From the NCBI GenBank assembly GCA_028712505.1, contig JAQTQC010000005.1:7051-71050 (forward strand): a stretch of DNA of 64,000 nucleotides, read 5' to 3'. Origin of the DNA: Candidatus Omnitrophota bacterium (GTDB lineage Bacteria; Omnitrophota; Gorgyraeia; Gygaellales; Profunditerraquicolaceae). The position numbers and the translations under genes are program-made. This document shows positions 21,001 through 61,741 of this stretch, one piece after another (positions within the stretch are counted from its first letter, which is position 1; each line of letters starts with the position of its first letter). Below the pieces are notes generated by a model that saw only the letters and a list, made by a program, of their open reading frames with translations, was not told where the DNA came from and did no database searches.

Positions 21001-22169
21001 GGGGAGAAGGTTCATATTCAATTGTTTGTTCTGAGCCGACCTTGGGGACTATTGATGGCATAACCATAGAAATCGTAAACGCGGATTTGGAAGATATCAA
21101 TAGTGCTGCAGTTGTCTCGATGTCCCAGTTGTCCAATATCGATACCGATGATATGAAGAGTTTGTCTACGAGTATAGGCGTGGTCAGCTCAAGCATCGAG
21201 AAGATCGTCGGTACAATGACTGACCTGGGTTCGATGAGTACTCAGATTTCCGCATTGACCAATGACATCCAGAAGACTGTTTTTGACCAGCTTTCTGTTG
21301 CTTCCGAAAAGATGAGAGAGATAGCTAAGCAGCAAAACGTCAAGATAGACAAGATGATCGATGTGTCTGAGAAGGGTCGGGAAGATGTGGATTATCTTAA
21401 GAAGAAGACTTTGGAGATCAAGGCTACAGCCGAGCTTACCAATGACATAATCACCAGGACAAATGATAAGCCGATAACTAAATCGTGGCTTGAGCCGGGA
21501 AGTATTTTAATGAACGCAGTTGTGGTTAATCCTTCCACCACCAAGAGTCAGACTGCCATGCTTAAAGCTTATCTGCCTGTGGAGAGCAAGCCTGAGGACA
21601 TAGTGGATTTAGGCGATCTTTCTGTAAGTTATGATGTCCAGGAAAATCTTTATTACGTATATAAAGAATTTACCCTTGGCCCTGGTGAAATGGCTAAGCG
21701 TCAGATAGAACTTAAAGATGTGTGGGTAATCCCTGAAAGCGAACTAAACGCGAATATAGAAAGAATAAATGAGATGCTTCAGGATCTTAAGGGGAGCACT
21801 TTCTATAATAGGGCTATGGTTATAAAAGATACTATTCAAACAAGGGTAGCTCAGATCCTGGATGCGCAGAAAAAAGCTATCGATGCCTTGCCTGATGTTC
21901 ATATCGCAGCTTACAGGGCGAATATGAAGATATTAAATACCATCAAAGAAGACTTGGCTAAAGTTGAGGCTATGCTTCTTCAGGCTAAGCCAGCTGTTGG
22001 TTTGGCGTTCAATAAGGTCTTTGTTAAAACCAGCTGGTGGATAATTTTGCTGGTAGTCATTTTCTTGGGTGTACTTTCGTTCGGACTTTTTATCATCTGG
22101 CATAAACAGGCCAAGGCGGCTTTGCTTGAGAAGAAGGCGGATAAGACTGATGAGCCGATAGGTCAATAG
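1..22169 (+). CDS. giant repetitive, tail-anchored cell-surface protein (5'-partial; >7,388 codons inside window)
   Basis: One open frame runs from window position 3 to TAG at 22167-22169. There is no in-frame stop upstream of the GTG at 75, and the upstream in-frame peptide (..SYYSFTTKKATGEVRDQNAQ) looks like the end of another module, so the gene continues 5' of the window. The translation is periodic: LVIVD-type repeats; about 42 modules containing NYTFNFT..H.[IV]P.GG[KY]V.I.FD.DY and ending in [KRI]NP.YVQTT; nine I[TS]SP..G..W..G....I.W..G repeats; an Ala/Glu/Lys/Ile-rich coiled coil; and a C-terminal hydrophobic helix WWIILLVVIFLGVLSFGLFIIW followed by a basic tail. A 22-kb frame with no stop cannot arise by chance. 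Confidence 0.85.
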   Translation, partial: AKLTSYYSFTTKKATGEVRDQNAQVAKNTIVAGSLTNLSATSSITEVSERIESSPYLTLNFTLAHQLPIGGYVKISFDTDYVFPTDTFCVTNDYNLYSDDSTKIMYLQRVSSPVAVGATSIQLANIKNPAYVQTTGNFSITTELSSHDPIDTGSAGGIGIVAGSLTNASVAPVSDIVSEFTSYTVNFTNDHMIAAGSKVAITFDADYGFKLLGRYACVASLADSSLTLMDISNPASPVLKSEISDEAGGFNKLAGAKSVYVSGSYLYAASSIDNSLTIIDISNPASPVLKSEIYDETAGFTKLAGAQSVFVLGNYAYVASSTDNALTIIDISNPASPVLKAEITDGSGGFTKLAGAKSVFVSGNYAYVASSTDNALTIIDISNPASPVLKAEITDGSGGFTKLAGAKSVFVLGNYAYVASSTDNALTIIDISNPASPVLKAEVYDGDGEFNRLAGIESVYVSGNYAYITSSTDNSLTIMDISDPANPVLKSEVYDGDGEFNRLAGAYSVYVSGNYAFVVSSADSSLTIIDVTNPMNPALKSEAYNEDGQFNKLGAPFAVFVYGNQVVPGNAGATVAASGSVLNVTLGSPIGANEAVSLQLDNIRNPYYVQTPDVFQVQTKNSAGGVVDQNLSVASVPVTKGAFTGLSVTAADREISKSDNYTFTLTYSHPVPKDGYLKIEFDSDYDLSSAYLVSPTDRYTYLWSSGWNYIELKLKEGIIADTSDTIVLGSVKNPSFVQQTSEHRFTTLSTDATGNAVIDQSNLTGLIIIGGKLTGVSVSAANNIVTETTNYTINLTTKNPMSLNPSIKVSFDPDYNVSGAAFVSGTVDGVAMVTQNPALTIDTNNNVVTLNLAMDITNSTAAVSFVLSGIVNPGYEQTAAFDITTQYGGNDIDITDPAAKPSVAIAAGTITSASVTPATTEVSESGNYVFNFTLPHALATGSFLRIQFDPDYVLTNTNCQTSGYSLSKGLDYILLQRTGAQLTGAQSLTLGNVKNPSFVQTTSNFIIKTEDSGNNKIDGAEVSGVTTTTGALTGLSLTPLDYTVANTTAYNIAFTTDHAIVQNGKIEVTFDSDYALTGVGSADVSGNPGSTVAVSGNKLTITLGTAIAAATPVSLQVANIVNPVYVKTTNSFAFRTMDAAAGLLDQGTASGVTTVAGTFTASSVTSTYYTTGKTDVSYTFNFTYAHNVPLDGFLRIDFDPDYDVASVAVAHANYTKQEAGANYVILKLLAAKPKGTVESITLSNIKNPGYAQTVTFDIKSMNTTGSVIDTVTTPSINIVPAALTALSRSSNTYIATESASYTIGFTTVNAIPAGGKVEITFDPDYVLTSVASGNVSGNSGSTVAVSGNTLIVTLGTNIPALTASSLVISNIKNPGAQSTGSFSLLTKNVSGYSIDQGTVSGVTIITGSLSGLSTVPVHTKVSYSTNYTFGFTVAHSVPVGGFIKIQFDSEYDLSSAFVVGDYTISKVDNYIYLQRNVSALSGAVTVELRSIKNPAYVQSTDTFVITTELSNHDPIDVGSAPSIVTTAGTLTATSVAPATTVVAENTAYTLNFTTEHAIAVGGKVEITFDPDCDLSLVFPGDVSGNSDSTVAVSGNKLIVTLGEALDAGVSETLVISNIKNPPYVKETNTFFVQTKNPSGGVIDEVTAASITTSTGVLGSPVITPASLVSGATTSYSFKFTPAHAVPLNGYLRIDFDSSYDLASPGAVVMSSTTACDITLRGAGYLLIKFSSSGLSAGVEQTVGIANVVNPPNVKSLEFTLTTKDASLYDIDTVKISGISTTAGSLSSSSLTANTYVVSEYATYTAVFTTANPIAVGGKVEINFDTDYVLSSVESTGVSGNPGSTVAVSGSKLVVAIGTAIAKNTPVSLAIANIKNPVYVQATDSFLIQTKTVDDAIIDTATATSINITAGALSGLSVSATSKKISDITSYTFNFTAQHVIPADGFIRIQFDSNYLLGSAYLDTASFYSLDRGSDYLRFKTVAQINAGQAVSIPISTIANPSYVYTVSNFQVKTMIAVAATQQIMDSGEITGVTLTPGTLSDISVTAASAEVSALTNYTFAFKTENSIAAGTGKVAISLDSDYDLSAVESNNVSGNSGATVSVSGNTLSITLGTAIAAKESVSLTVSNIKNPSYVQTTGSVTISSKVQINSVDYDKDGGILASGPAITSGDFTNVSISATSQIAGEDSIYTFGFTPGHNVSAGGFIYIGFETGYDVSGAYLTGSTGSGEYAVASLTSTQVVLNVTAAIAKGEAQTISLGGVVNPQFVKDVICTLKSANASSGIIDESDTPSLSITPAPLAVLSISGASYVAQDVTSYTIAFTTVNPIDQNGEVEVEFDADYDLSAVQPGNVTGNSGSSVSVSGSKLIINLGTAVASGEQVSLVVSNIKNPGVQTTGSFNLVTRNSSGNYLDYGGVAGTAITAGSLSGLSATPGTTEIDESTSYTFNLTLGHSVPTNGYVRVQFDNNYVLTNATVVTSGYSLTKGTNYVLLKRTGSALSGAISIQLNSIINPSYVSNTLAGFAIQTQLSNNQVIDTGTAGAITTTAGALSAVTAVPASLGVSTLTSYTFNFTTDHAIPSGGKVLITFDSDYNLTSVQEGNVSGVADSVVAVSGNVLTVTLGQAIAAKTSASLVISNIRNPSYVQTTNNFALESRNSSNALIDQGTAGGVTTVTGIVTISSITASTYVAGSTNAQYTFNFAPTNAVAAGGYLRVDFDVTDSAYNASSAIVSAGGSTFVIPQGGANKNYVNLTFTQNVDAGSPLSLQLSGIVNPVYAKNVTFRLTTNISTGEKIDTSDYGPVVITPAPLVGTSLIMGSTTALDISRHTFSFTTVNAIDVGGKVEITFDSDYVLTGVGSGNVSGNSGSTVAVSGSKLIVTLGTAVSSASEVVLAIDNIKNPGAQTTDAYAIVTKNSGGYQLDQGSVAGKTITAGVLTVLSADATTYEVAESANYTINFTLAHNIPINGYVRVQFDDNYTLTNATVATSGYALTGTGSNYLLLRTGSERSGAISIQLNSIINPSYVSNTLAGFAIQTQLSNNQVIDTGTAGAITTTAGALSAVTAVPASLGVSTLTSYTFNFTTDHAIPSGGKVLITFDSDYNLTSVQEGNVSGVADSVVAVSGNVLTVTLGQAIAAKTSASLVISNIRNPSYVQTTNNFALESRNSSNALIDQGTAGGVTTTAGTLTSVSGAAVNYAAGAETQYTFNFMPANDVVTGGYVKIEFNSEYNITGAYLISPSAKYSISTKTNNIIVLNVLADALASSSQSISIGGIVNPGREKTGIKFTVTTLTSNSANIDTAQSAAINITAGVLTSSSATASTYTTYDLASYTFNFTTANALDVGGKVEITFDADYDVSAAVFTYGNDNSTLSVSGRVVTITLGTAIAKQESVTLTISEIRNPGVQSTDSYAIVTKDSSATRVDTGTISGKVITGGGMSATSVTAGSTQPAVTTNYTFAFTPDHIIPTGGYIRVTFDSDYVLDYVSVQTAGYAASTGPGYVLLTNTSGGNLSGARSIVLLNVKNPASVKEPTGNFYITTMTSNQDTIDTATLTGITMTPSPITVSSISTVSAEVSALTSYTVKITPIHTIPIGGKVLITFDSDYNLSNIGSGDVLGNSSTASVSGNILSVTLGEMASQGNVLTLVISDVQNPSYVQTTGVFSVVTKDASGYKLDSGDIAGISITEGQLTNLSATPANTTLDTITSYLFQFTPEHTIPLNGYVKITFDSDFDLTGAYSGTGSYSIVSLESGYILLKALAEKSTAQSLQILNVKNPSYVQTTDAFSITTQDANQKNIDVGNASGITTTAGVLSAGSVSQTSTQAGTTTSYTFNFTTIHAVAAGGKVEITFDSDYILTSVTAYNVSGIANSTVAVSGNKLIVTTGTAVSAGAQVALTISNIKNPAYVQTTSAFAIDTKNVSGGLLDSGTIPGINITAGSLSSVSATPVSTEAAKSTDYTFNFTTEHSLPADGYVQIEFDPAYDLSTSVVLTSGYALVTRGSNYLKLQTSEIRSGSISIVLRNIVNPPYVATSSAFTVITQTSTGDTVDMGTCSGITTTPAALTSASASAALTEVSSQGDYTFIVTPQHDIPIGGRIRITFDNDYTLTNVVSGNVACSGGNATVSVSSKTLIITLGYELVGGTEESIVISNIKNPSFAQTTNNFTIVTRDDQDRTIDQGAASGVVITAGALTAISVTADSLVAGYTSVYTFNFTPAHAVNSGGYVVIDFDSAYNAASGYVVSPLSTFSLSSRSANRITLSALETLPAATAQSVTIGSIVNPGSVKQVTFTISTQNSTQNNIDTAVSPAISTQAAPMTAVSVNAVSKIALDSTSYTFVFTTVNSIEAGGKIEFTFDSEYDLTQATYASGLIGGSTALGATLAVSGSKLILTTTTAISTQAGVSVVFANIKNPGVQTVDNFAILTRNLNNNELDQGTATGVAITAGSLTGLSVTAGSTEIGATSTYSFGFTVAHTVPVNGYVKISFDSDYSFANANVLSEAYVITDKQSNFILLRRSAQLIGANTLQLGNIVNPSYVQATDPFVITTQLSDNKIIDTGTTLSVNITPGSLTQLSASAVNPLISAVSSYSFSFKTTHAVEAGGKVVITFDDDYDLSLVSIGSQDISGSGTPAIESKEGKKLNIVLSTGVSASATVSLSISNITNPRYVQTTSSFVFQTRTVSGAAIDEGLSGGITTTAGTLTGINIASGSAIAGARTDYTFTFTPAHSVEANGYLRIDLNSQYNAGISYVMSPTALFEISDKAANYITVKALSALTAGTSYSVRLGNIDNPGRSMDVTFTLTTKTASSANIDTGISSSMHITPAPMQSASISSSSLIATETATYTLNFVPVNTIDDGGRVEITFDSDYVLTGVNSVTGFDASIAVSGSVLIITLNTQLEAGEACSFIIPNIKNPGAQTTDAFSLVTKDSTGTSLDEGTIASKVIQAGALGSLSVSADSYEVMGTSESATYTFNFTCVHAIPANGYIRIGFDTDYSLDNVVNLSSGYLISSKGAGYLLIRTTQERSGACSIQLSGIRNPSYVQTTDNFTIATQLATQQNIDTGTIGGITTTTGSLTGLTVSTTNSKIAESAVYTFNFTADHAVAVGGKVAITFDADYDLTAVTSTSVSGNSGSTVSVSGHDLIITLGEQIFAAGNVSLAVSNIVNPAYVQTSDAFVIKTKNPEDGLIDTGNASGVTLEPGVLGNVNVSSNDLQVNAQSIYTFVFTPAHPIPANGYIKIDLDNDYDISGAYLYLVSGYSFEKNTSDVYFTLQANSAKPAGTPLTISIAGIINPPYSQTTDSFMINTQAANQSGIDSGLANGVEITAGQLSGVSVVSAGNNYVVGNQVNYTVAFTTVNPIGVGGQVKVTFDADYGFALNGAVSGNAGATAAVNANVVTVTLGTAVAANQAVSLTLGTFTNPGYVQKTDEFLIKTFDSAGYALDSGKTLGKDITTGALTSLSVNSSSASVLNADTKLTFSFNAPHVIPLDGFIKINLDSDYSVVSPYIKSSSGASLTLLTEAGSQAGYLLFKLNSAASGAISVEVGGITNPSYEQTTQNFVITTMYTGEEGIDTGTIPGLVVNSGSLVISSVACLDNYAGATTTYTVNFAAVHAIAVTSKIEIVFDSNYNLAGAELSSPSGSLTVSGSTLSISLEAEAAASSNVSLNIAGIVNPGYSQTTDNFKVTIKDVGGNTVDKGEGSGIAILPARIEFITPAAGDIYSVGDSKIIKWQVTGGDISRTSSHWSVQFASDTNFTSPITVHEGLASVDANSNLYFTLSVDVSMLSENAYLRVTCIDNSYTDVTTTSGRFSIRPVAGFIGYISPASSSAKWAIGSSSTIEWSTQGATSNNFKIEYFAKNIWTTIYEEGVTGSALVIKSAGDHWYEDKWSYSWAIPEAANLPDTGVQVRVTNIDNNIITGTTEAFEIATAYIEITSPAEGSTWVRNETNNITWEGQGESGTNFSIQYVDSTNAVTVDIYSGTIERTLSEGKWLYSYSWLVGIDLEPTDTAVITITNLDNNKIVDTSSVFSVNASGKLEITAPVEGGRWVAGARYTIKWNSEGQALSSSSLRITYTADGISETLITNSTSNTGSKDFTCPSTTLNNVKIRLRQINGDVTAESGAFNIVAVPSLQFVSPAANDNWVASFTKEIKWSGVGEGLTKDLVIKYSTDGGSTYANTIFNYTTDSFDEKISAVTTGTVTNYTLSWVVPVNYSSNVKIKIEDMGIMRLVSGSYTPLSLVSGKFSITAPLATIVQPAGGEEWISGTEHDIIWSETGSLGKDIKISYSVDGGATYPYVIFQNSSGDSTVYANYITVADNLFSYKWVVPNTISAQCRIKVEGLSNSGNGTSLANFSIKLPSITITSPVATDLWAIYDSSRIITWNTVGNVSEHLKIEYFKDESTSKVILEDTNGPMTSYSWDVTEDFIDYVSPSGWIKITDLNSESTFAQKVTAVSEQFELSLPGFDIDVPAVPLITGSSYTITWQGVGAYSACSSESGNTVRLEYGVGDNPTWVTIATSTQNDGSYENWTVPDRHSSDVKFRITNNRYSFISTVSSAFKIMGSFSVTSPAAATKLFVGKEQMIEWSTNGTINKVNLYYSKNGGSTWTTLASNTTNNGFYVWIIPDAVLIDRSPNPNIYFKIEDATDAAVYASRQLTISYYKVTWNVIDADGLVGDLDGLSVNTLDVSNDNAVWEDRTGLSCSASIRNAGIDADDIVLYYYPGHLYQTTWSRDAYLDATVQPSPWTADADGKEFTVTLATMLVTKTRTVYSSVTYDASADTLSIQCWLQEEEKLLTEIAGLQGALVIIYDDEDNEIKTFEYTAAQADASGVFWTKWVNPGLQRNKSYFARFRIQFEGAFHYGGKTFEISSASQIDDIAESVSAGVVAITSAIAESSQEIKEKIEETATETQTKVAQAVSTAQASIEGTVTVIGEENKAAIGSASAAIREKVGKESSSRILNGEAFIKSGNKLKIRYQTDSKLAPEIDVYDPKNIQRITKGVMTEVGDTGVYEYEVNFLSGWGEGSYSIVCSEPTLGTIDGITIEIVNADLEDINSAAVVSMSQLSNIDTDDMKSLSTSIGVVSSSIEKIVGTMTDLGSMSTQISALTNDIQKTVFDQLSVASEKMREIAKQQNVKIDKMIDVSEKGREDVDYLKKKTLEIKATAELTNDIITRTNDKPITKSWLEPGSILMNAVVVNPSTTKSQTAMLKAYLPVESKPEDIVDLGDLSVSYDVQENLYYVYKEFTLGPGEMAKRQIELKDVWVIPESELNANIERINEMLQDLKGSTFYNRAMVIKDTIQTRVAQILDAQKKAIDALPDVHIAAYRANMKILNTIKEDLAKVEAMLLQAKPAVGLAFNKVFVKTSWWIILLVVIFLGVLSFGLFIIWHKQAKAALLEKKADKTDEPIGQ
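640..1700 (+). repeat. array of ~7 LVIVD-type beta-propeller repeats (~50 aa / 150 bp each) inside the giant gene
   Basis: Repeated peptide G(N/S)YAYVASSTDNALTIIDISNPASPVLKAEI.DG.GGF.KLAGAKSV.V matches the LVIVD repeat consensus found in archaeal and bacterial surface proteins. Confidence 0.7.
991..1290 (+). repeat. two tandem 150-bp units, 149/150 identical (single c/t difference at 1087 vs 1237), flanked by further partial copies (935-990, 1291-1328)
   Basis: Direct comparison of 991-1140 with 1141-1290 in the sequence. Confidence 0.9.
7491..8008 (+). repeat. copy A of an exact 518-bp intragenic direct repeat (one full module)
   Basis: 100% identical to 9012-9529 (offset 1521 bp), checked line by line. 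Identity breaks at 8009 (t) vs 9530 (a). Confidence 0.9.
9012..9529 (+). repeat. copy B of the exact 518-bp intragenic direct repeat
   Basis: Identical to 7491-8008. Encodes the same 172 aa (SGAISIQLNSIINPSYVSNTLAGFAIQTQ...DQGTAGGVTT). Confidence 0.9.
17070..19830 (+). repeat. nine ~95-110-aa Trp-containing repeats (I[TS]SP..G..W..G....I.W...G), KNH/Kre9 (GPI-anchored-family)-like
   Basis: Peptides IEFITPAAGDIYSVGDSKIIKWQVTG, YIEITSPAEGSTWVRNETNNITWEGQG, KLEITAPVEGGRWVAGARYTIKWNSEG, SLQFVSPAANDNWVASFTKEIKWSGVG, SITITSPVATDLWAIYDSSRIITWNTVG and others. Confidence 0.6.
22032..22100 (+). other. C-terminal transmembrane anchor of the giant protein (tail anchor), followed by a Lys-rich 24-aa tail
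   Basis: Hydrophobic stretch of about 22 residues WWIILLVVIFLGVLSFGLFIIW, then HKQAKAALLEKKADKTDEPIGQ. Confidence 0.6.
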
Positions 22170-22317
22170 GAGAGAAGTTTGATTGCCTGAGTAAAGGCAA
22201 GTAAGTGTTTTAGTTTCTTAGGGGGTGTTCCGGACAGAGGGGCAGCCCCTATTTAATGTATTTTGTCTAGACCCATAAATTCGGCAGGATTGCGTCAAAA
22301 TAAAATATCTTCTGTTC

Positions 22318-22346
22318 TTGATTTAAAATTTCTAATGTGGTAAAAT
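22318..22346 (+). promoter_or_regulatory. candidate sigma70-type promoter (TTGATT-17-TGgTAAAAT) ending 4 nt before the ATG at 22350, implying a leaderless or near-leaderless mRNA
   Basis: -35 TTGATT at 22318-22323, 17-nt spacer, extended -10 TGGTAAAAT at 22338-22346. Confidence 0.3.
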
Positions 22347-22349
22347 TTT

Positions 22350-23126
22350 ATGATGAAATCCTGGGTTAGCTGGGTGTTATTGAGTTTATTCTTATTGTAT
22401 CCTTTAGAGGCTCCTGGCGCAGATGTTTCCTGGAATAATGTAGAAAAAAGCAAACATTTCCTTATTTATTTTCAGGATGCTCCTGCTGAATATATCAACC
22501 GCCTGGTGCGGGAGGCAGAACGCTCTTACAAGAATATTACCGAGTACCTGGGTTTTGTGAGGTTTGATTTCTGGATCTGGGATAACCGCTGTAAGATTTT
22601 CCTCTATCCCGACGCCGATACCTATCTGAAAACTACCGGAGTTATCGGCTGGTCAAGAGGGCATGTCCAGGTAGTAACAAAAGAGATCAGTACTTATATC
22701 TGGCAGGAAATGTTTTTTGATACGATTCTTCCTCATGAGATCGGGCATATCATCTTCAGGGAATTTGTCGGCTACAGCAAGGTGTTACCTCTCTGGCTTG
22801 ATGAGGGGGTGGCTTGCATGCAGGAGTATGAGAGCAATGAGCGTTTGGCCACCGCTAAATGCCTGGTGAACTTGAAATTATACACGCATTTGGATGATTT
22901 ATCCAAGATTCAGGATTCCGGGGTTATTATACCTTTTATTTTTTATAATGAATCTGCCAGCCTGGTGGATTTTCTCCTGAGGAGATATGGCAGGGGTAAA
23001 TTTGTTGATTTCTGTCGTTCTCTGCGTGATGAGCCTGATTGGAAACAGTCTCTCAGAGGTGTCTATAGATTAAAGAATCTGGATGAACTGGAAAGAAACT
23101 GGGTTATGGACTTAACTGAAAATTAA
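22350..23126 (+). CDS. secreted zinc metallopeptidase, peptidase-MA-like (HEIGH ... WLDEG)
   Basis: N-terminal signal-like segment MMKSWVSWVLLSLFLLYPLEAPGA. HExxH motif HEIGHIIF followed by WLDEGVA, as in Peptidase_MA_2 family proteins. Confidence 0.55.
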   Translation: MMKSWVSWVLLSLFLLYPLEAPGADVSWNNVEKSKHFLIYFQDAPAEYINRLVREAERSYKNITEYLGFVRFDFWIWDNRCKIFLYPDADTYLKTTGVIGWSRGHVQVVTKEISTYIWQEMFFDTILPHEIGHIIFREFVGYSKVLPLWLDEGVACMQEYESNERLATAKCLVNLKLYTHLDDLSKIQDSGVIIPFIFYNESASLVDFLLRRYGRGKFVDFCRSLRDEPDWKQSLRGVYRLKNLDELERNWVMDLTEN

Positions 23127-23144
23127 AGTTGGAGGATTGAATTA

Positions 23145-24059
23145 ATGAGGAATGAGGTAAAAGCCCGTGAATTTAATGTCTTAATTGTTGAGGACGATGA
23201 TAGAACATTTAAAGTTATCAGCGATGGGCTGACGGTTAACCCTGAATATAAGCTGCACCGGGTAACTACCGGGCAGGAAGCGATCAACCTGGCTAAAGAG
23301 GGTTATTTTGTCGCTATTATAACTGAGATGCAGATCGGTGATATGAACGGGATAGAATTAGTCCGCCGGCTTAAGAAAATAGACCAACGAATTAATATTA
23401 TCGGCCTGACTGTCTATGCCTTTGTTAATTTAGGCGTAGAGGCAATGAAGGAAGGGCTTTATGCGTATCTGATGAAGCCGTTAAATACCGAAGAACTGAA
23501 TTTAGTTTTAAGGCGGGCCATCGAAAATACATTTCTTTTGATCCAGGCAGGCCAGAGGAAGTATTATCAGGATATTGCGACAATGGATGGCTTGACCGGT
23601 GTTTATAACCATCGGCATTTCCATGAAATGCTGGATTGGAATATCTCGCATTTAAACCGTTCCCCCCAGGCATTTTCAATATTCATCATTGATATCGATG
23701 ATTTCAAAAAATACAATGATACAAAAGGTCATGTAGAAGGGGACAAGGTATTGCATAACTTCGCGCAGTTATTAGTCAGCTCCACCCGGGATAATGACAT
23801 GGTTTTCCGATACGGAGGAGAAGAGTTCGCTGTAATTTTATCTCAGACAGATCAGTTGAGTGCCCAAAAAGCGGGTGATAGGCTTTTGGCAATAGTAAGA
23901 AGCAGGATGCCTGTGACTATGAGCGTAGGTTTAGCTAGTTTTCCGATGAACGCTCAAATTAAAAGCGATCTTGTTGTGCGCGCTGATAAGGCTCTTTACC
24001 GGGCTAAGAAAACAGGTAAAAACAGGCTGTGTACTTATGATGAGAAGATAGACATATGA
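23145..24059 (+). CDS. response-regulator receiver domain fused to a GGDEF diguanylate cyclase (intact GGEEF and RxxD I-site; Glu in place of the phospho-acceptor Asp)
   Basis: REC-like N-terminus (VLIVEDDD ... LTVYAF ... YLMKP) but FVAIITEMQIGDMNG where LLDLMMPGMDG is expected. C-terminus carries DGLTGVYNHRHF ... RDNDMVFRYGGEEFAVIL ... ALYRAKKTGKNR. RBS GGAGG upstream. The TGA stop overlaps the atpE ATG (ATGA at 24056-24059). Confidence 0.8.
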   Translation: MRNEVKAREFNVLIVEDDDRTFKVISDGLTVNPEYKLHRVTTGQEAINLAKEGYFVAIITEMQIGDMNGIELVRRLKKIDQRINIIGLTVYAFVNLGVEAMKEGLYAYLMKPLNTEELNLVLRRAIENTFLLIQAGQRKYYQDIATMDGLTGVYNHRHFHEMLDWNISHLNRSPQAFSIFIIDIDDFKKYNDTKGHVEGDKVLHNFAQLLVSSTRDNDMVFRYGGEEFAVILSQTDQLSAQKAGDRLLAIVRSRMPVTMSVGLASFPMNAQIKSDLVVRADKALYRAKKTGKNRLCTYDEKIDI

Positions 24060-24268
24060 AAAATCTAACTATTATCCTGATTATGTTGATCAGCACCTTA
24101 GGGCCCTCAGCTGTTATTGCAGCAGTGGGTTTTTCCGGGGTTAAGGCAATCGGAAGAAACCCGTCGGCAGCTCCTAAAATATTAATTTCCATGGTTTTGG
24201 CTTTTATTTTTGCCGAAGCTATAGCTGTAATCGGGCTTTTGGTGGTATATAACTTGTTTGGGCAGTAA
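24056..24268 (+). CDS. atpE: F-type ATP synthase subunit c (proteolipid), 70 aa
   Basis: Two-helix hairpin with the loop GRNPSAAP and the conserved carboxylate in helix 2 (IFAEAIAVIGLL). Confidence 0.8.
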   Translation: MKNLTIILIMLISTLGPSAVIAAVGFSGVKAIGRNPSAAPKILISMVLAFIFAEAIAVIGLLVVYNLFGQ

Positions 24269-24313
24269 ATAAATTCTTAAATTTGTATTCAGTGTTCCCT
24301 CGCTTATACGCTC

Positions 24314-24334
24314 GAAGATTTCTTTGAAATCTTC
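24314..24334 (+). promoter_or_regulatory. perfect 9-bp-stem hairpin GAAGATTTC-TTT-GAAATCTTC in the atpE-atpF spacer
   Basis: Exact palindrome read from the sequence. Candidate mRNA processing or stability element. Confidence 0.4.
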
Positions 24335-24384
24335 TTCGCAAGCTCGGGATTTCGCTAAATAAGAGCATAAGGTGCTCAAATTCG

Positions 24385-24423
24385 CACATTGACTTATGTT
24401 CACTTTGTTCCATAAGTCAAGTG
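24385..24423 (+). promoter_or_regulatory. second hairpin in the atpE-atpF spacer (core TTGACTTATG / CATAAGTCAA, 12-nt loop, CAC/GTG extension with one bulge)
   Basis: Inverted repeat at 24389-24398 and 24411-24420. Lies 22 nt upstream of the atpF RBS AGAGGAG. Confidence 0.4.
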
Positions 24424-24444
24424 CTCATTTAAAGAGGAGTTCAT

Positions 24445-25203
24445 ATGCTGGTATGGCAGATAATCCTTATACAGATCGCTACTTTTACTTTGATTGTTTT
24501 ATTCCTCCGTTGGCTGCTTTACAGCCACATTAGCCGCGCTTTAGACCGCCTGCAAAGATTGAATCAGCAAAACCTGGAAAAAGAAAAAGTGCTCAAGGAA
24601 GAGTTTGAGCGGGCAAGGAAACAGGCAGAGGTTGAGATCCAGCAGGGTAAGCTTGAGGCTGAGAATATAAAAGAGCAAGCTAAGGAAGAAGGTGAGAAGA
24701 CCAGGAGGAACCTGCTTGAGACATCTAAAGAAGAAGCTAAGCGTATTGTTAGCGAGGGGATGAGGGATAGCCAGAGAAAGTACAATGATTTGCTTTTGGA
24801 TATGCAGGATAAGGCGGTGTATCTGGCAGCGGATATCGTAAAATATATTTTTACAGAGAGGATCCGTAAGGTGTTGCATGAGCAAGTAATCGATGAATTG
24901 ATCGATGATGTTTCCGGCTTGGATAAAGAAAAAATACGTGCTCAGGGAGATAAGGCGGAAATCGTCTGCGCTTATTCGCTTGGGGAAGCGCAAAAGCAGA
25001 GATTGCAGCAAGCCTTATCTAATAAGCTAGAACGTAATATTATTATTGAAGAGACGATTGACCCGGAGATTGTCGGGGGTCTGATTATACGCTTAAGCGG
25101 ATTTGTGGTTATTGACGGTAGTATTAGGAATAAGTTCAAGAGGATAGTTCCGATAATGAAGGATAGGGCCAGAGAAGGCATTGGGCAAACAGGGAAGGGC
25201 TGA
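24445..25203 (+). CDS. atpFH: F-type ATP synthase subunit b fused to subunit delta (b-delta fusion)
   Basis: N-terminal TM helix plus b-like LRWLLYSHISRALDRLQRL and a long charged coiled coil. The C-terminus (IIIEETIDPEIVGGLIIRLSGFVVIDGSIRNKFKRI) matches the delta/OSCP C-terminal consensus. Confidence 0.7.
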   Translation: MLVWQIILIQIATFTLIVLFLRWLLYSHISRALDRLQRLNQQNLEKEKVLKEEFERARKQAEVEIQQGKLEAENIKEQAKEEGEKTRRNLLETSKEEAKRIVSEGMRDSQRKYNDLLLDMQDKAVYLAADIVKYIFTERIRKVLHEQVIDELIDDVSGLDKEKIRAQGDKAEIVCAYSLGEAQKQRLQQALSNKLERNIIIEETIDPEIVGGLIIRLSGFVVIDGSIRNKFKRIVPIMKDRAREGIGQTGKG

Positions 25204-26669
25204 TGCAGGAGATTAATTTAAAACCATTAGAAATAAAGGATGTCGGCACAGTCAGGGAGATCAAGGGCGGTGTCATAAAAATAGACGGGCTTGCTTCTTG
25301 CGTGAACGGACAATTGATTGAGCTTGCCCCTGGTCTGATGGGGATGGTTATTGGTTTTACCAAGAAGGACGTCTTGGTCTTAGTGCTTGGCGATGAGAAT
25401 AAGGTGCATATCGGCGATACTGTTTACGGAGAGGAAGGTGTTTTTGAGGTTCCTGTAGGCAGTAACTTTCTTGGCCGGGTGGTCAATACCTTTGGCCAGC
25501 CTCTAGACGGTAAAGGTAAGATCGAGGGTGTGGATACTTATCCGATATTTCGCAATGCTCCCGGGGTGTTGGACAGAGCCCCTATTCTCGAACCTTTTCT
25601 TACTGGAACCAAGATTATCGACACGTGTATACCTTTAGGAAAAGGGCAAAGGGAGCTTATCCTTGGGGACAGGGTTACTGGCAAGACTACCCTGGTTATC
25701 GATGCAATCATCAACCAGAAGGGTAAAGACGTAATTTGCATATATTGCTGGATAGGCGGTAGTCAATCTTCGTTTTTAAAAATCATGGAGCAGTTAAGGC
25801 TAAGCGGAGCTATGGAATGGACTATTGTGGTTACGGCATCCGCTTCAGCTTCTCCCGCAGAGCAATATCTGGTTCCTTATGCAGCTGCTGCCCTGGGTGA
25901 GTATTTTATGGATCATGGCCGGGATGTCTTTTGTGCCTTTGATAATTTAAGCCGGCATGCCTGGATTTATCGCGAGATCTCCCTGCTTTTAGAGAGAAGC
26001 CCGGGTAGAGAGGCTTATCCCGGAGATATGTTTTACACCCATTCACAGCTGATGGAGAGGGCGGGTAAGTTGAATGAAGAAAAAGGCTCAGGTTCAATGA
26101 CATTCCTGCCGATTGTAGAAACCCAGGAAGGTGATATTACCGGACTCATCCAATCCAACCTTGTTTCTATAACTGACGGCCAGATTTATTTAAGCGCCTC
26201 TCTTTTTAATGAAGGTTTTAAGCCGGCTATTGATTTAGGGCTTTCGGTTTCGCGTATCGGAAGCAAGGTACAGTGTGATGCGATAAAGAAGGTAAGCCGT
26301 TCACTAAAAAGAGAATTTGCCCTGGCTAAAGAATTAGCCGCGCTTACTACCATTCGAACCAAATTGTCCGCTGATATCGAACTTAGGCTTAAGCGGGGAC
26401 AGGCTCTGAAAGATTTGCTTATGCAGGATAAGTCAAAGCCTCTTTGCGTAGAGGAGATGATTGTTCTTTTTTACGCATTTAATAAAGACCTGCCTGAGAT
26501 CTTGGAGGAGTCGCAAAGAGAAAACTTTAAGCAGAACATATTCGCTTATTTGCTCAGAGAACATCCGGAATTAGTCGAAGAACTTACTATCCAAAAGCTT
26601 CTTACCGGAGGAATTGAAAGAGGTTTGGATAAGGCGTTTGAGGAATTTTTTGCCGCGGCAAACAATTAA
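25203..26669 (+). CDS. atpA: F-type ATP synthase alpha subunit
   Basis: GDRVTGKTTLVIDAIINQKG Walker A in alpha context, plus the typical alpha C-terminal helical region. Start overlaps the atpFH stop (TGATG). Confidence 0.85.
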   Translation: MQEINLKPLEIKDVGTVREIKGGVIKIDGLASCVNGQLIELAPGLMGMVIGFTKKDVLVLVLGDENKVHIGDTVYGEEGVFEVPVGSNFLGRVVNTFGQPLDGKGKIEGVDTYPIFRNAPGVLDRAPILEPFLTGTKIIDTCIPLGKGQRELILGDRVTGKTTLVIDAIINQKGKDVICIYCWIGGSQSSFLKIMEQLRLSGAMEWTIVVTASASASPAEQYLVPYAAAALGEYFMDHGRDVFCAFDNLSRHAWIYREISLLLERSPGREAYPGDMFYTHSQLMERAGKLNEEKGSGSMTFLPIVETQEGDITGLIQSNLVSITDGQIYLSASLFNEGFKPAIDLGLSVSRIGSKVQCDAIKKVSRSLKREFALAKELAALTTIRTKLSADIELRLKRGQALKDLLMQDKSKPLCVEEMIVLFYAFNKDLPEILEESQRENFKQNIFAYLLREHPELVEELTIQKLLTGGIERGLDKAFEEFFAAANN

Positions 26670-26685: not shown

Positions 26686-27576
26686 ATGATTCCATTAGTC
26701 GTATTACGCAAGGATTTGGCGTTTAATAAGGTAATGGAAAGCATCATTGAGGTGTTAAAGGGCGTCGCTGCCACTGAGTATTTTCATCTTCAGGGTAAAA
26801 GAAGGAGTTTTGATGAGTTTGAGGGTTATTTAAGAGACCTGTTTGCCCAGGTAGATGTCGGTGATTTCAAACATCCGTTCTTGAACTCTGAGCCTTCTGC
26901 GAAAAATATTGTCTTAATAACTTCCGATTCCGGTTTTCTCGGGGAGCTTAATATGTCGGTAGTAAATTATGGTTTAAGCCAATATCAGAGTGGCGATTTA
27001 CTGACGGTTGTGGGCAAAGAAGGAACAAGATATATCAGCGAGGATGATTATAAGTACACAAGTTTTCCGGGTATTGACGATGATATTTCTTATAGCGGGG
27101 TAATCAGATTAAGAGATCATATCATAAAGGAATTCTTTAGTAAAAAGCTGAGCGGCACGGTTATAGTCTATCCGCATTTTGTTTCTTTTTCTGTGCAGAA
27201 GATAGAACAGTTTCAGTTGTTCCCTTGCAGGTTTTTATTCCCCCAGGAATCCGGTGTCCCGGGTGACAGTAAGGCAAAGTTCTGGGAGTCCGGAACCGAT
27301 GAAAAGATAATCCTGGACTCATCATTAAAAACAACGGTGGAATATTTAGTCAGGATTTGGATCGGTCAGTTAATTAATCTTATATATTGGGAAAGTAAGC
27401 TTTCTGAATGGGCAGCGCGGGTGATGCATCTGGAAAGAAGTACCAATGAACTTAGGAACCAGCAGAAGAAGATGCGTTTACAGTATTTCCGCACTATGCA
27501 CGAGCGAAGTGATAAAAATACCCGGGAAATCTTTGTCAGCCGTATGGCTTTGATCAAGACCGGGGCTGTATCTTAA
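26686..27576 (+). CDS. atpG: F-type ATP synthase gamma subunit (divergent)
   Basis: Position between alpha and beta, size 296 aa, gamma-like N- and C-terminal helices. Assignment rests mainly on synteny. Confidence 0.6.
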
Positions 27577-27590
27577 GAAAGAGGAGCTTT

Positions 27591-29000
27591 ATGCAGGAAG
27601 GCAAGATAGTCTCAGTCCAGGGGCCAATCGTAGATGTGGAGTTTCCCGCGGATGTATTATTCCCGGCTATATACGATGTTATTGAGACCGAGACTTTTGA
27701 CGGTCACCGGATAGTGCTTGAGGTGGTAGAATATTTGAGTAAATCTGATTCGGATAAGACAAATACCATGAGGTGTATTTGTTTAAATCCGAATTTTGGT
27801 TTGCGTAGGAACGCCCGGGCAATTGCCAAAGGCTCAACTATCAGTGTACCCGTAGGAGAAGCAACCTGTTCCCGGATATTGAACGTTTTGGGTGAACCGG
27901 TAGATAAGAAAGGGCCAGTTAATGTCGGCCCGGATAAGATCAGGCCCACACATAGAAAACAGCAGATAGCTACCGTTGATACCGGGGATGGCAAAGAGAA
28001 GAAGTTTGAGGTTATGCAAACAGGCATAAAGATGTTCGATCTCCTGTTTCCTCTAATTAAAGGTTCCCGGAACGGTATCCTAGGAGGCGCAGCTTGCGGC
28101 AAGAGTGTAATCATCTTAGAGCTTATGCATAACATTATCAAGATGCAGAAAGGCTATTGTGTTTTTACGGGAGCAGGAGAGCGGACCAGGGAAGGTAATG
28201 AGTTATATTATGAACTGGAGAAACAGGATATCTTGAATAGGTCATCTTTGGTATTTGGGCAGATGAACGAATCTCCCGGAGCCAGATTTGAAATAGTAAA
28301 CACAGGTTTGACTATCGCGGAGAATTTTGCCGAAGAAGGGGATGATGTTCTGTTGTTTGTGGATAACGTATACAGGTTTGCCCAGGCAGGTACAGAGTTG
28401 TCTACCCTTTTAGGCAGGATTCCTTCCGAGACAGGTTATCAACCTACGTTGCCTTCAGAGATGGCTGAATTTCAGGAGAGGATTCGTTCAGTCGGACAGG
28501 CTTCAATTACGGCAATGGAAGCAGTTTATGTGCCCTCCGATGATTTAACTGATCCGGCAGTAGTCTGTATATTCAGTTATTTGGATTCTATAGTTATCTT
28601 GAGCCGGCGTTATGTTCAGTTAGGCTTATTCCCTGCTATCGATGCCTTGACTTCGTCTTGCGCCTTTCTTGATCCGATGATTATCGGAAAAAGGCATTTC
28701 AAGACTGCTCAGGATGTTTTAAGAATCCTTAACCGGTATGAGGAGCTCAGGCGTATTGTTGCTATTGTAGGGGTAGAAGAACTTTCTCAAGGGGATAGGA
28801 CTATATTCGAAAGAGCAGCTAAGCTGCAGAATTTTCTTACCCAGCCGTTTTTTTGCGCCGAGGCTTATACAGGAAGAAAAGGAGAATATGTCCCTTTAGA
28901 GGCGACTTTAGAGGGTTGTGAAAGGATAGTTTCCGGCCAGGTGGATAAAGTTCAGGCGGAAAAATTTTATATGATTGGCGCACTGCTAAATGACATTTAA
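27591..29000 (+). CDS. atpD: F-type ATP synthase beta subunit (Walker A GGAACGKS; DELSEED replaced by EELSQGD)
   Basis: [20 protein letters not shown]-terminus. Catalytic GERTREG motif, [11 protein letters not shown], and P-loop [11 protein letters not shown]. Confidence 0.85.
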
Positions 29001-29020: not shown

Positions 29021-30748
29021 ATGTTAATTAAAATTGGGCAGATGTTGATTAACAAGAAATTGATTACCTCTGAGCAGTTAGAAGAGGCGCTTACCGAGCA
29101 GACCAGGACGGGTGAGCTCTTGGGGGTGATTTTGATCAAGAAAGGCTTCTTGAACCAGGAGGATTTTTTAAAAGTACTTTCGGAGCAATTTAATGTGCCT
29201 TTCATAAAGTTAAAAGAAACTACCATTGATCCTTTGGCGATCAAGAAAGTCCCTGCCAAGTTCGCCTGGTATTACAAGGTTATGCCGGTAAAGTTTGTAG
29301 ATAATAAATTACTGATTGCTTCTTCCGATCCTTTACGTTCCCTGGATGACTTGAGAATATTTTTAGGTTATGATTTAAAGCCTGCCCTGGCTGAAGAAAC
29401 TGAAATTATGGAAGCGATTAAAGAGCATTATGGTGTAGGAGCCGAGACCGTAGAGGGGATTATTGCTAAGGCGCCCAAGGATGTCAGAGTTCCAGACGCC
29501 TCAAAAGAAACAGGCAGGATCGAGGATATTGAAAAGTTAGCCGAAGATGCCTCAGTGGTCAAACTGGTAAATCAGATTATCTTGGAGGCTTATCAAAAAA
29601 GAGCTACTGATATCCATATTGAGCCATTCAGAGGCAAGATGAGTATAAGGTATCGTATCGACGGTGTACTTTATAACGCGAATGTACCGGCGGATATTGA
29701 GCGGTTTTTCCTGGCCATTATTTCGCGTATAAAGATAATGTCCAGGCTGAATATCGTAGAACGCCGGCTTCCCCAGGATGGCCGCGCCGTGATAAAGATA
29801 GGTAAGGAAGAACTGGATCTGAGGATCTCGATTATACCCACGCGTTATGGCGAGGGCATGGTAATAAGGATCCTCCCTATGAGCATGCTTTTTAGTTTGG
29901 AAAGACTGGGACTAGCGCCTGAAGATTTAGAGCTCTTGGCAAAATTGATCAAGAAGCCCCATGGCATAATCCTGGTGACCGGCCCGACGGGAAGCGGTAA
30001 GAGTACCACTTTGTATGGATGTTTGAATGATATAAAAAGCAGCAGGAATAAGATAATTACCATTGAAGATCCTATCGAGTATGAGTTGGAAGGTATAACT
30101 CAGATTCAGGTGGTTCCTGAAATAGGCTTTACTTTTGCTCAAGGTTTAAGAAGTATCTTAAGGCATGACCCGGATATAATGATGGTTGGAGAGATCCGGG
30201 ATTTTGAGACCGCTGAGCTGGCAATCCGTAGTGCCTTGACCGGCCATCTAGTTTTCTCTACCATCCACACCAATGATGCCGCAGGCGCAGTTGCCCGTCT
30301 CTTAAATATCGGTATTGAGCCGTATCTGGCGGCTTCTTCAGTTGAGGCATTTATTGCTCAAAGGCTGGTGCGCTTAATCTGCCCTGACTGCAAGAAAATC
30401 GATACTGACGTACCGGATAATTTCAGGTCATTGATCGGTCAGGATATAGCCAGGAGTGGTGGAGGATTGCAACACTTGAAACCGGAAGAGATCAAGATTT
30501 ATAAAGGCCAGGGTTGCAAGGAGTGTAATTTTACCGGCTATAAGGGCAGGACTGCAATCCATGAAATATTAGTAGTGGATAAGGGGATACGGGAGCTGAT
30601 GCTCAGAAAAGCCTCAACCGATGAATTGCGGGATAAGGCGGTCAGTGCCGGCATGAAAACATTGCGTCTATGCGGATGGAAAAAAGTTATTGACGGTTTG
30701 ACTACCCCTGAAGAGATATTGAGGGTAACCCAGGCAGAGGAGTATTAA
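29021..30748 (+). CDS. gspE: T2SS/T4P assembly ATPase GspE/PilB family (N-terminal GspE_N/MshEN-like domain, Walker A GPTGSGKST, tetra-Cys zinc motif)
   Basis: Motifs GPTGSGKSTTLY, DPIEYEL, MVGEIRD, CPDCKK...CKECNFTGYKGR. N-terminal KIGQMLINKKLITSEQLEEALTEQ. Confidence 0.85.
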   Translation: MLIKIGQMLINKKLITSEQLEEALTEQTRTGELLGVILIKKGFLNQEDFLKVLSEQFNVPFIKLKETTIDPLAIKKVPAKFAWYYKVMPVKFVDNKLLIASSDPLRSLDDLRIFLGYDLKPALAEETEIMEAIKEHYGVGAETVEGIIAKAPKDVRVPDASKETGRIEDIEKLAEDASVVKLVNQIILEAYQKRATDIHIEPFRGKMSIRYRIDGVLYNANVPADIERFFLAIISRIKIMSRLNIVERRLPQDGRAVIKIGKEELDLRISIIPTRYGEGMVIRILPMSMLFSLERLGLAPEDLELLAKLIKKPHGIILVTGPTGSGKSTTLYGCLNDIKSSRNKIITIEDPIEYELEGITQIQVVPEIGFTFAQGLRSILRHDPDIMMVGEIRDFETAELAIRSALTGHLVFSTIHTNDAAGAVARLLNIGIEPYLAASSVEAFIAQRLVRLICPDCKKIDTDVPDNFRSLIGQDIARSGGGLQHLKPEEIKIYKGQGCKECNFTGYKGRTAIHEILVVDKGIRELMLRKASTDELRDKAVSAGMKTLRLCGWKKVIDGLTTPEEILRVTQAEEY

Positions 30749-30752
30749 GCAG

Positions 30753-30992
30753 ATGTTCAAGGTTTCGGTGCTGGACATAAAGACCGCTTCATCTATATTC
30801 CAGGAGTTGGTTTCTCAGGTTGTGCTGCCTGGTGAGGAGGGGGAGTTGTCGATTATGGATTTTCATCAGCCGATTATCTCCTGTCTTAAGGATGGGTTAA
30901 TCCGGATAGATAATACCCCGCCTATATTTATTAAAAGCGGGATTGCCAGTATGCAAGATAATGAGCTAGTGGTATTGGTGGAGAAAAAATAA
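30753..30992 (+). CDS. atpC: F-type ATP synthase epsilon subunit, beta-sandwich N-terminal domain only (79 aa, no C-terminal helical domain)
   Basis: VVLPGEEGELSIMDFHQPIISCLKDGLIRI and FIKSGIASMQDNELVVLVE align with the epsilon NTD (E. coli [28 protein letters not shown]). RBS GAGGAG upstream. Sits 4 nt after the gspE stop and 1 nt before gspF. Confidence 0.7.
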   Translation: MFKVSVLDIKTASSIFQELVSQVVLPGEEGELSIMDFHQPIISCLKDGLIRIDNTPPIFIKSGIASMQDNELVVLVEKK

Positions 30993-60930: not shown

Positions 60931-60996
60931 TTTTACTTATTTTAACTTTAAGCTATACTGATAAAATAAGCTGATCTTTTGAAGGAGTAGCCTAAG

Positions 60997-61371: not shown

Positions 61372-61374
61372 TAA

Positions 61375-61713: not shown

Positions 61714-61741
61714 AAGTTGCTGGTTTCAAATCGGAGTTAAA

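Follow-up and report, generated by a model that had tools for sequence, protein, structure and literature searches.

Why a gene for a diguanylate cyclase should run, at its stop codon, into the gene for an F-type ATPase c subunit is the question raised by a stretch of DNA from a Candidatus Omnitrophota bacterium (GenBank assembly GCA_028712505.1, contig JAQTQC010000005.1, positions 7,051 to 71,050 of the forward strand), which was analysed over its whole length of 64,000 nucleotides and is referred to below as the window. An earlier description made from the letters alone (the original prediction) had presented the gene product as a receiver (Rec)-GGDEF cyclase with Glu in place of the phosphorylatable Asp, encoded by a gene translationally coupled to atpE. 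The answer favoured here, with rather more confidence than doubt, is that the protein would be an active, product-inhibited cyclase of the DgcR/WspR type with a pseudo-receiver built around Glu61, dedicated to the Omnitrophota ATPase–pilus cluster, its cyclic di-GMP (c-di-GMP) being read out by the GspE of that cluster.

The cyclase and its aspartate-less receiver

The features of the cyclase gene, numbered from the first letter of the window, are:

23145-24059, + strand: Rec–long helix–GGDEF diguanylate cyclase, 304 aa, as predicted from Pfam, PDB sequence matches, Foldseek and an AlphaFold2 (AF2) model
23172-23552, + strand: receiver domain, residues 10-136, from AF2 secondary structure (best solved receiver NtrC1, 6e-16)
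23325-23327, + strand: Glu61 codon GAG, at the phospho-acceptor position directly after strand beta3, from alignments to solved receivers
23577-24026, + strand: GGDEF catalytic domain, residues 145-294, opening with the DxLT-type motif 'DGLT' (Pfam 1-161/161)
23787-23798, + strand: I-site RxxD, R215-D-N-D218 (RDND), the site of allosteric product inhibition, with R215 and D218 invariant
23814-23828, + strand: active-site motif GGEEF, residues 224-228, conserved in the alignment
24056-24059, + strand: ATGA, overlap of the cyclase stop and the c-subunit start, read directly

As judged by its sequence, the open reading frame (ORF) at 23145-24059, which is preceded at 8 nt by a GGAGGA Shine-Dalgarno sequence, encodes a Rec–long helix–GGDEF diguanylate cyclase. 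In Pfam comparisons of the 304-aa product, Response_reg was matched at residues 12-120 (2.3e-18) and the full GGDEF model at residues 145-294 (1.5e-40), while the closest solved proteins over its full length were WspR, PleD and DgcR, by sequence as well as by Foldseek (E 1e-19 to 5e-21). In the AF2 model (pLDDT 82.6) the receiver is a regular (beta-alpha)5 fold, in which five strands (residues 10-15, 35-40, 55-59, 84-89 and 107-110) alternate with five helices (19-29, 43-50, 69-79, 91-102 and 115-136), the last of which, alpha5, is extended to 22 residues and is followed by the 'DGLT' at 148-151 that opens the GGDEF domain.

The window protein shares its length, the arrangement Rec–coiled-coil–GGDEF and an RxxD I-site with DgcR of Leptospira biflexa, Rrp1 and WspR, and as in DgcR its alpha5 is extended by ~10 residues (about 3 turns) through DxLT into the GGDEF domain. 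Matches to this group were 7.6e-26 for 6zxm by sequence and about 1e-19 to 5e-21 (E) for 3bre/6zxb by fold, and the acidic pair of the DgcR pocket, E12/D13, is likewise Glu-Asp. In contrast with DgcR, Rrp1 and WspR, which have a phosphorylatable Asp (D56 in DgcR) and are switched by a kinase or BeF3, the window cyclase has an invariant Glu and no linked kinase. The best full-length PDB sequence matches (about 2e-28) were to PleD of Caulobacter, which also has a GGDEF domain with an I-site and in which the Rec' adaptor is a receiver without the acceptor Asp. PleD, however, keeps a first, phosphorylatable receiver (D53) whereas the window cyclase has only the aspartate-less one.

The predicted replacement of the acceptor Asp was borne out by these comparisons. 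In HMMER alignments to solved receivers, Glu61 ('AIITEMQIGDMNG') fell on D53 of PleD and on the conserved Asp of the NtrC1 'LLDLLLPDVNG' loop, as well as on the corresponding Asp in Spo0F and 3jte, and MAFFT placed it on D57 of CheY. In the AF2 model, Glu61 stands directly after beta3 (55-59), where canonical receivers have the acceptor Asp, while T89 closes beta4 and K111 follows beta5. The pocket is otherwise intact, as had been stated for its acidic residues, Thr and Lys: the acidic pair E16/D17, T89, Y108 and K111 are all present, and D66, which is conserved, is reminiscent of the receiver of NtrC1, as is the 'DMNG' loop. Since the acceptor Asp is replaced by Glu61, the cyclase is not to be filed as a phosphorylatable response regulator; canonical transfer of a phosphoryl group to Glu61 is not possible, and the enzyme is thus uncoupled from two-component phosphotransfer. 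Kinase independence, the corollary drawn in the original prediction, is strongly suggested by the fixation of Glu in the family and by five relatives with fully annotated flanks, in which no histidine kinase was found within 10 kb.

With a receiver fold and a residue other than Asp at the acceptor position, the domain belongs to the aspartate-less receivers (ALRs), which are enriched on GGDEF outputs and in which Glu is the commonest substitution (26%) and the second acidic residue is generally kept in only 29% (Maule et al., PMC4395418). Glu-type ALRs on GGDEF domains are a known class, within which the window protein represents a new and well-defined family, unlike most ALRs in that both acidic residues are kept together with Thr, Tyr and Lys. 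By analogy, it is plausible that Glu61 is phosphomimetic and that the enzyme would be constitutively active. In NtrC the D54E change is phosphomimetic and activating, whereas replacement of Asp by Glu is insufficient for activation of CheY, PhoB and Spo0A (PMC4395418). The same substitution is found in ChxR, CmrT (E53), AtvR and the laboratory NtrC D54E, for which constitutive kinase-independent activity has been inferred, although in the literature compared the constitutive activity of ChxR is independent of its Glu and the role of Glu as a phosphomimic in CmrT and AtvR is itself inferred. The characterised Glu-type ALRs are transcription factors, whereas the window family drives a cyclase tied to one gene cluster.

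The catalytic domain is canonical and carries the RxxD I-site, as originally described. The metal- and substrate-binding residues D183, D185, N191, D192, H196 and K288, as well as G291, were invariant in 121 aligned sequences; GGEEF, apart from one GGDEF variant, was invariant in the same sequences, as were R215 and D218 of the I-site (121/121), and GGEEF, R215 and D218 were present in all loci of the metagenome scan described below. The spacing from RxxD to GGEEF, 5 residues, matches that in the PleD sequence. The cyclase thus shows every sequence feature of an active, I-site-regulated enzyme.

Homologues were sought among 5.8 billion proteins, from which a tight orthologous family was recovered, several members being named Omnitrophica or Omnitrophota (including 'Ca. 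Orphnella occulta'). Glu61 was noted in 120/120 homologues, down to 54% identity, while among the 121 aligned sequences E16 was present in 118, D17 and T89 in 107 each, and Y108 and K111-P112 in all. In a library clustered at 50% identity the family was reduced to one representative, the next matches being at most 43% identical, and 65 small Rec-GGDEF representatives carried the acceptor Asp in 49 cases and Glu in 12. The metagenome scan, seeded on the neighbouring c-subunit gene and not on the cyclase, retrieved 80 loci, of which all 31 with a readable Rec-GGDEF (cyclase identity 36-92%) had Glu at the acceptor position and the acidic pair was ED throughout. The Glu61 codon was GAG in 20 cases and GAA in 12 and never GAT or GAC. 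Because the residue is invariant in both sets (120/120 and 31/31), and because both codons for Glu occur although a single third-position change would give Asp, Glu at the acceptor position is judged to be an old and selected feature. In a profile search of genome contigs with the cyclase alignment, generic GGDEF patterns of mostly unrelated cyclases were matched, and only L009 was orthologous.

All cluster-linked cyclases fell in one clade of a rough neighbour-joining tree, and a complete phospho-acceptor site was seen in none of the inspected sequences of that clade. The sole cluster-linked protein with an acceptor Asp, P0140 (L179 6001-6879), has Gly-Gly for the acidic pair and would therefore not bind the catalytic metal or be phosphorylatable either, by its sequence a different route to a non-phosphorylatable receiver, while P0152, inside the cyclase clade, has Ala at the acceptor position. 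The nearest Asp-type relative, P0124, lies on contigs of about 1.2 kb, too short to show its neighbouring genes. Another relative, P0025 (73% identity), is a Rec-GGDEF-PilZ fusion (PilZ at residues 346-438), in which a c-di-GMP receptor domain is joined to the cyclase family.

The cyclase within an ATPase–pilus cluster

The genes that flank the cyclase in the window are:

22350-23126, + strand: secreted MA-clan metallopeptidase-like protein, 258 aa, with signal peptide and HEIGH motif (Pfam Peptidase_MA_2, 1.4e-6, under the curated cut-off)
24056-24268, + strand: F-type ATPase c subunit, 70 aa, with RNP loop and Glu as the helix-2 carboxylate ('AFIFAEAIA'; Pfam ATP-synt_C, 2.1e-7)
24269-24444, + strand: intergenic stretch, 176 nt, strongly folding (minimum free energy -55.1 kcal/mol, z -4.45)
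24445-25203, + strand: ATPase b/delta fusion (Pfam)
25203-26669, + strand: ATPase alpha (Pfam)
26686-27576, + strand: ATPase gamma (Pfam)
27591-29000, + strand: ATPase beta (Pfam)
29021-30748, + strand: GspE/PilB-type assembly ATPase, 575 aa (Pfam T2SSE, 5.5e-128; MshEN, 9.3e-18)
30753-30992, + strand: ATPase epsilon N-domain, 79 aa (Pfam ATP-synt_DE_N, 3.7e-14)
30994-32226, + strand: GspF platform protein (Pfam T2SSF, 1.4e-68)

Downstream of GspF the order is GspG, I, J, K, a PilM-PilN fusion and PilO. Thus c, b, delta, alpha, gamma, beta and epsilon were all found by Pfam, with b and delta fused, gspE lies between beta and epsilon, and gspF follows straight after epsilon. In all related clusters gspE is kept between beta and epsilon/gspF, and in a deeper branch epsilon stands before c. 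The c subunit was aligned with 7 cluster orthologues and with its counterparts from E. coli and Bacillus PS3. On visual inspection alpha and beta appear competent for catalysis, with P-loops and, in beta, the GERTREGN segment.

No subunit a was found. Among ORFs of at least 120 aa in the window there was no Pfam ATP-synt_A match, and in the 759 kb formed by the window and 88 related loci there was neither a tblastn match below E = 2.6 nor an R-x-x-G-N motif, the tblastn search having been made with two a-subunit queries and over these clusters. The marginal match at E = 2.6, in L090, was rejected as noise, there being no membrane ORF at that place, and the 258-aa protein upstream of the cyclase was rejected as a divergent a subunit in view of its single N-terminal hydrophobic segment, HEIGH motif and Peptidase_MA_2 match. 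Clusters without the cyclase were likewise without atpB. The suggestion that the cyclase sits where atpB or atpI normally lie consequently holds for position only, the ATPase being of a distinct F-type family that lacks subunit a with or without the cyclase. In L090 the c subunit (8453-8662) has Gln for the ion-binding carboxylate Glu ('AFVFAQAIA'), a change that would be expected to abolish proton or sodium binding.

The F1-like type 2/3 ATPases of Mycoplasma, which serve gliding, have diverged paralogues of alpha and beta but lack c, b, delta and epsilon. In the window, by contrast, c, b/delta and epsilon are present, and matches of alpha and beta to solved F1 subunits were 1e-130 to 1e-144 (beta ~1e-134) whereas beta matched the Mycoplasma G1-ATPase beta at only 9e-90. 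Likeness to the Mycoplasma types had been proposed by Seymour et al. (2023; PMC10066038), who described in many Omnitrophota a 'non-respiratory' F-type ATPase beside genes for type-4a pili, the two lying no more than 10 kb apart in 57 of 66 contigs, and tied these loci to giant ORFs and a symbiotic lifestyle. The locus in the window is almost certainly a cluster of this kind, and its annotation as an ATP synthase operon is corrected here. Type II secretion system (T2SS)-like loci and pilZ genes near giant genes were reported by West-Roberts et al. In term searches, no link of a diguanylate cyclase or of c-di-GMP to the ATPase genes was found in the main text of Seymour et al. (2023), in West-Roberts et al. 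or in a 2026 complete-genome preprint, nor was any mention of the a subunit found in that main text or in the preprint. Thus, while the ATPase–pilus cluster has been known since 2023, the cyclase appears not to have been described before as one of its components. What is new is the fixed place of the cyclase at the head of the a-less ATPase/pilus cluster together with a matching receptor motif (see below).

An order that begins with a giant or merely large protein and continues through the peptidase-like protein, the cyclase and the ATPase genes to gspE and gspF was seen in L004, L005 and L007 (54-60% cyclase identity), in L001 and in UBA6249 (L009) and, with epsilon moved to a place just after the cyclase, in L089, L090, L092, L178 and L179 (~34-42% identity). 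The 31 scan loci with a readable Rec-GGDEF share this cluster arrangement, so that it spans 36-92% cyclase identity. Among scan loci with at least ~900 nt 5' of the first ATPase gene (counts not dereplicated), a Glu-type Rec-GGDEF was present in 31 and another GGDEF protein in the same slot in 4, so that a cyclase lay immediately 5' of the ATPase genes in about two thirds of evaluable clusters. The other occupants include a 609-aa GGDEF protein in L154 (2953-4782) and, 5' of epsilon in L164/L166/L167, a membrane-anchored coiled-coil GGDEF protein with RxxD and GGDEF motifs. Such replacements suggest that what is conserved in the slot is the making of c-di-GMP and not the receiver.

In the window the peptidase-like gene and the cyclase are separated by 19 nt, and the cyclase TGA (24057-24059) overlaps the c-subunit ATG (24056-24058), which agrees with the ATGA overlap first read from the sequence. 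The 4-nt overlap was present in 14 of 22 scan loci with c directly after the cyclase, the other gaps ranging from +3 to +106 nt, and also in L004, L005/L006 and L009, while it was absent in L007/L008 (+88 nt). Where epsilon follows the cyclase, spacing ranged from an 8-nt overlap to a 75-nt gap; this range excludes L124, L169 and L172, in which apparent cyclase–epsilon fusions were rejected as artefacts of ORF extension, an in-frame stop separating the genes. Tight packing on the same strand is thus the rule and the exact overlap a feature of lineage, and the coupling to atpE that had been predicted applies to this lineage but not throughout the related clusters, in some of which epsilon follows the cyclase.

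Co-transcription of the cyclase with the cluster is likely from this packing, and the original proposal that the cyclase is linked with the ATPase and gsp genes was upheld in that no convincing intrinsic terminator lies between them. In a consensus scan no + strand terminator was called where the peptidase gene meets the cyclase, nor in the gap from atpE to b/delta, and the only call between genes, a poor one, was a stem of 5 bp within atpE. Terminator-like sites as a whole were weak (6 vs 2.9 ± 2.0 in shuffles) and promoter-like sites at the level of chance (6 found, 6.9 expected from shuffles), so that these scans gave no evidence for a transcript boundary. The 176-nt gap between atpE and b/delta has no U-tract terminator, and no match to Rfam, and hence no riboswitch or known RNA in this gap, was found over 22100-24500. 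The stretch was found only in contigs identical to the window and is therefore strain-specific; in relatives of 85-92%, the spacing from c to b/delta looks shorter and variable, as far as positions of tblastn hits indicate.

Other observations concern the neighbours of these genes. The giant repeat protein encoded 5' of the peptidase gene has 7364 aa in the window (75-22169) but 10,933 aa when the full contig L001 is read, and towards its C-terminus it has a coiled region of low complexity and, at the end, a transmembrane anchor ('...IFLGVLSFGLFIIWHKQ'); the anchor is conserved in a 1948-aa protein at the same position in L090 (L090 17-5863; L001 giant 1-9025). The MA-type peptidase-like gene lies directly 5' of the cyclase in L001, L004, L007, L179 and many scan loci, and it keeps its position in many clusters, some of them without the cyclase; its HEIGH-containing product may process the giant protein. 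Insertions within the ATPase genes were noted in L005, where a 23S_rRNA_IVP/bAvd-type gene (12250-12609) lies between b/delta and alpha, and in L154, where an IS200-type transposase (5862-6773) lies between b/delta and c.

GspE as a candidate c-di-GMP receptor

The feature of GspE that bears on the cyclase is:

29030-29188, + strand: tandem 24-residue MshEN/GSPII-type c-di-GMP motif, GspE residues 4-56, from a relaxed-motif scan

The consensus consists of two copies of (R/K/L)LGxx(L/V/I)(L/V/I)xxG(L/V/I)(L/V/I)xxxxLxxxLxxQ with a 5-residue spacer, and the motif in the window GspE reads KIGQMLINKKLITSEQLEEALTEQ-TRTGE-LLGVILIKKGFLNQEDFLKVLSEQ, likewise with a 5-residue spacer. Compared with the relaxed pattern of Wang et al. 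there is one mismatch in each half; against the consensus, Leu is replaced at two positions (I5 and F49) and Gly at one (K13), while both terminal residues, Q27 and Q56, are kept. The Lys/Leu pair K4 and L33 is that of GSPII-B in Thermus PilF, which was also the best solved match of the GspE N-domain. According to Neissner et al., who extended the consensus to (R/K/L)LG..., GSPII-B binds c-di-GMP with a KD of 6 nM, and its Lys (motif 1) and Leu (motif 2), which replace the arginines of MshE, contribute to this high affinity. The motif is kept with 1-4 mismatches in nearly all GspE orthologues of the clusters. In contrast, a second T2SSE ATPase in the window (61742-63397) has 9 mismatches and no N-terminal c-di-GMP motif, its Pfam MshEN match notwithstanding. 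In the same part of the window (57160-63397), this second ATPase is preceded by a multi-PAS histidine kinase of 1256 aa and by a receiver of one domain, presumably with a normal acceptor.

The tandem motif, with the deviations given above, the 5-residue spacer and terminal Gln are shared with MshE of V. cholerae and with PilF GSPII-B of T. thermophilus. The logic of cyclase to pilus ATPase is established for MshE and PilF whereas binding by the cluster GspE is predicted from sequence, and the cluster gspE is embedded between F-type beta and epsilon genes while those for MshE and PilF are not. The GspE/PilB-like ATPase is the probable c-di-GMP receptor of the cluster, and cyclase and motif together would form a coherent module of synthase and receptor. 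The motif, which was absent from the original prediction, is the most informative link at the locus.

Proposed mechanism and alternatives

The genes of the proposed pathway are arranged in the order giant surface protein, MA-type peptidase, cyclase, a-less F-type ATPase and interleaved T2SS/type IV pilus-like apparatus. The receiver is envisaged as a dimerisation module in which Glu61 would be held by Glu16/Asp17, Thr89, Tyr108 and Lys111 in one conformation, probably active-like, with the extended alpha5 helices in a register that lets the two GGDEF domains meet; a register-switch mechanism has been described for DgcR (PMC8041772). Output would then depend on joint expression of the cyclase and the machine, given their shared strand, the 19-nt gap 5' and the 4-nt overlap 3', and would be capped by c-di-GMP at the invariant RxxD I-site. 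The product would be read locally by the MshEN/GSPII-B-type motif of GspE, and this would license the assembly of a pilus or pseudopilus in the manner of MshE and PilF, so that the cyclase probably supplies the signal that switches on the pilus motor of the cluster.

Several points weigh against this scheme. By analogy with CheY, PhoB and Spo0A, Glu61 could equally lock the receiver in an inactive or intermediate state, and the full retention of the acidic pair together with Thr, Tyr and Lys suggests that the domain is still worked as a switch and not locked. The E-type relatives P0135 and P0141 sit outside such clusters, in a separate clade of the neighbour-joining tree. In ~15 of roughly 50 evaluable clusters there is no cyclase, a peptidase-like or unannotated protein preceding the ATPase genes; since these clusters keep the GspE motif, the cyclase is not obligatory, and as the motif is kept with and without it the comparison does not discriminate. 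Within the motif, position 10 of the first copy is Lys (K13) and not the turn Gly, and in the GspE of L005 both motif Gly are replaced. Finally, the case for co-transcription comes from gene spacing only.

The alternative that survives best, to which we would give perhaps a quarter of our belief, is that the receiver is still a regulated switch, worked without phosphotransfer by a partner protein of the cluster (a stator or pilus-platform component being candidates), by a cation or ligand in the acidic pocket or by modification of Glu61 such as methylation, which would make the cyclase conditional rather than constitutive. Conservation of E16, D17, T89, Y108 and K111 is as strong as in phosphorylatable receivers, against 29% retention of the second acidic residue in ALRs, and D66 and the 'DMNG' loop are NtrC1-like; replacement of Asp by Glu is often insufficient for activation, and methylation of Glu has been suggested as a possible modification of ALRs (PMC4395418). 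However, no candidate partner, methyltransferase or sensor co-varied with the cyclase in the loci examined, and since a Gly-Gly pocket (P0140) and an acceptor-site Ala (P0152) are tolerated within the clade, the chemistry of the pocket would seem inessential.

Of lower standing, and unlikely in our estimate, is a main action of c-di-GMP on the F1-like alpha3beta3 ATPase, through an allosteric site like that of FliI and HrcN, by which the rotary motor would be tuned; such an action is compatible with the route through GspE. The cyclase always stands immediately 5' of whichever ATPase gene comes first (c or epsilon) and not before gspE, and for FliI, HrcN and ClpB2 the binding of c-di-GMP has been placed at an interface between subunits that was modelled on F1, although binding to true F1 was not found in the same study (PMC4591828). 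The pocket of FliI is formed by R170, E208 and R337. Against it, too, GspE carries an explicit c-di-GMP motif of an experimentally validated type.

That the GGDEF domain is locked off or non-catalytic and serves, by way of its I-site, to sense c-di-GMP or to act as a scaffold is very improbable. The I-site is invariant and inactivity is the outcome of the Asp-to-Glu change in CheY, but the A-site GGEEF, D183, D185, N191, D192 and K288 are invariant over >150 sequences. In domains that serve only as sensors the A-site is usually degenerate, full conservation being typical of active cyclases.

An ordinary respiratory atp operon, in which a cyclase has by chance displaced atpB or atpI and adjacency is without functional meaning, can be dismissed as barely credible: the genes c, b/delta, alpha, gamma, beta and epsilon do follow the canonical F-type order and alpha and beta are near true F1, but this is contradicted by synteny, the interleaving of gspE and gspF being conserved over deep divergence, by the lack of an a subunit in 759 kb around 89 clusters and of atpB in cyclase-free clusters as well, by the lineage with Gln for the c-ring carboxylate and by the classification of these clusters as non-respiratory by Seymour et al.

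The favoured reading, of a Glu61 cyclase acting through GspE, can be extended to a hybrid machine, uncharacterised until now, in which an a-less F1Fo-like rotary ATPase, with its c-ring (in one lineage without the carboxylate) and b/delta stalk, would be physically coupled to the GspE/GspF platform and deploy or operate the giant surface protein on host cells, with the licence of c-di-GMP given by the Glu-locked, kinase-independent cyclase. This extension is speculative and is put forward as an outside chance; if it were true, the gene order gspE, epsilon and gspF would reflect shared assembly and not two neighbouring systems.

As a natural and deeply conserved replacement of Asp by Glu within a whole switch apparatus, the receiver offers a good system for the role of Glu in Rec-GGDEF proteins. 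The Omnitrophota are uncultured, ultra-small and probably host-dependent bacteria, in which giant genes and ATPase/pilus loci are the main candidates for attachment to or attack on hosts. For these loci the cyclase and the GspE motif give a concrete regulatory hypothesis, testable with recombinant proteins alone, and a coherent signalling module, assembled from known parts, in a poorly understood phylum.

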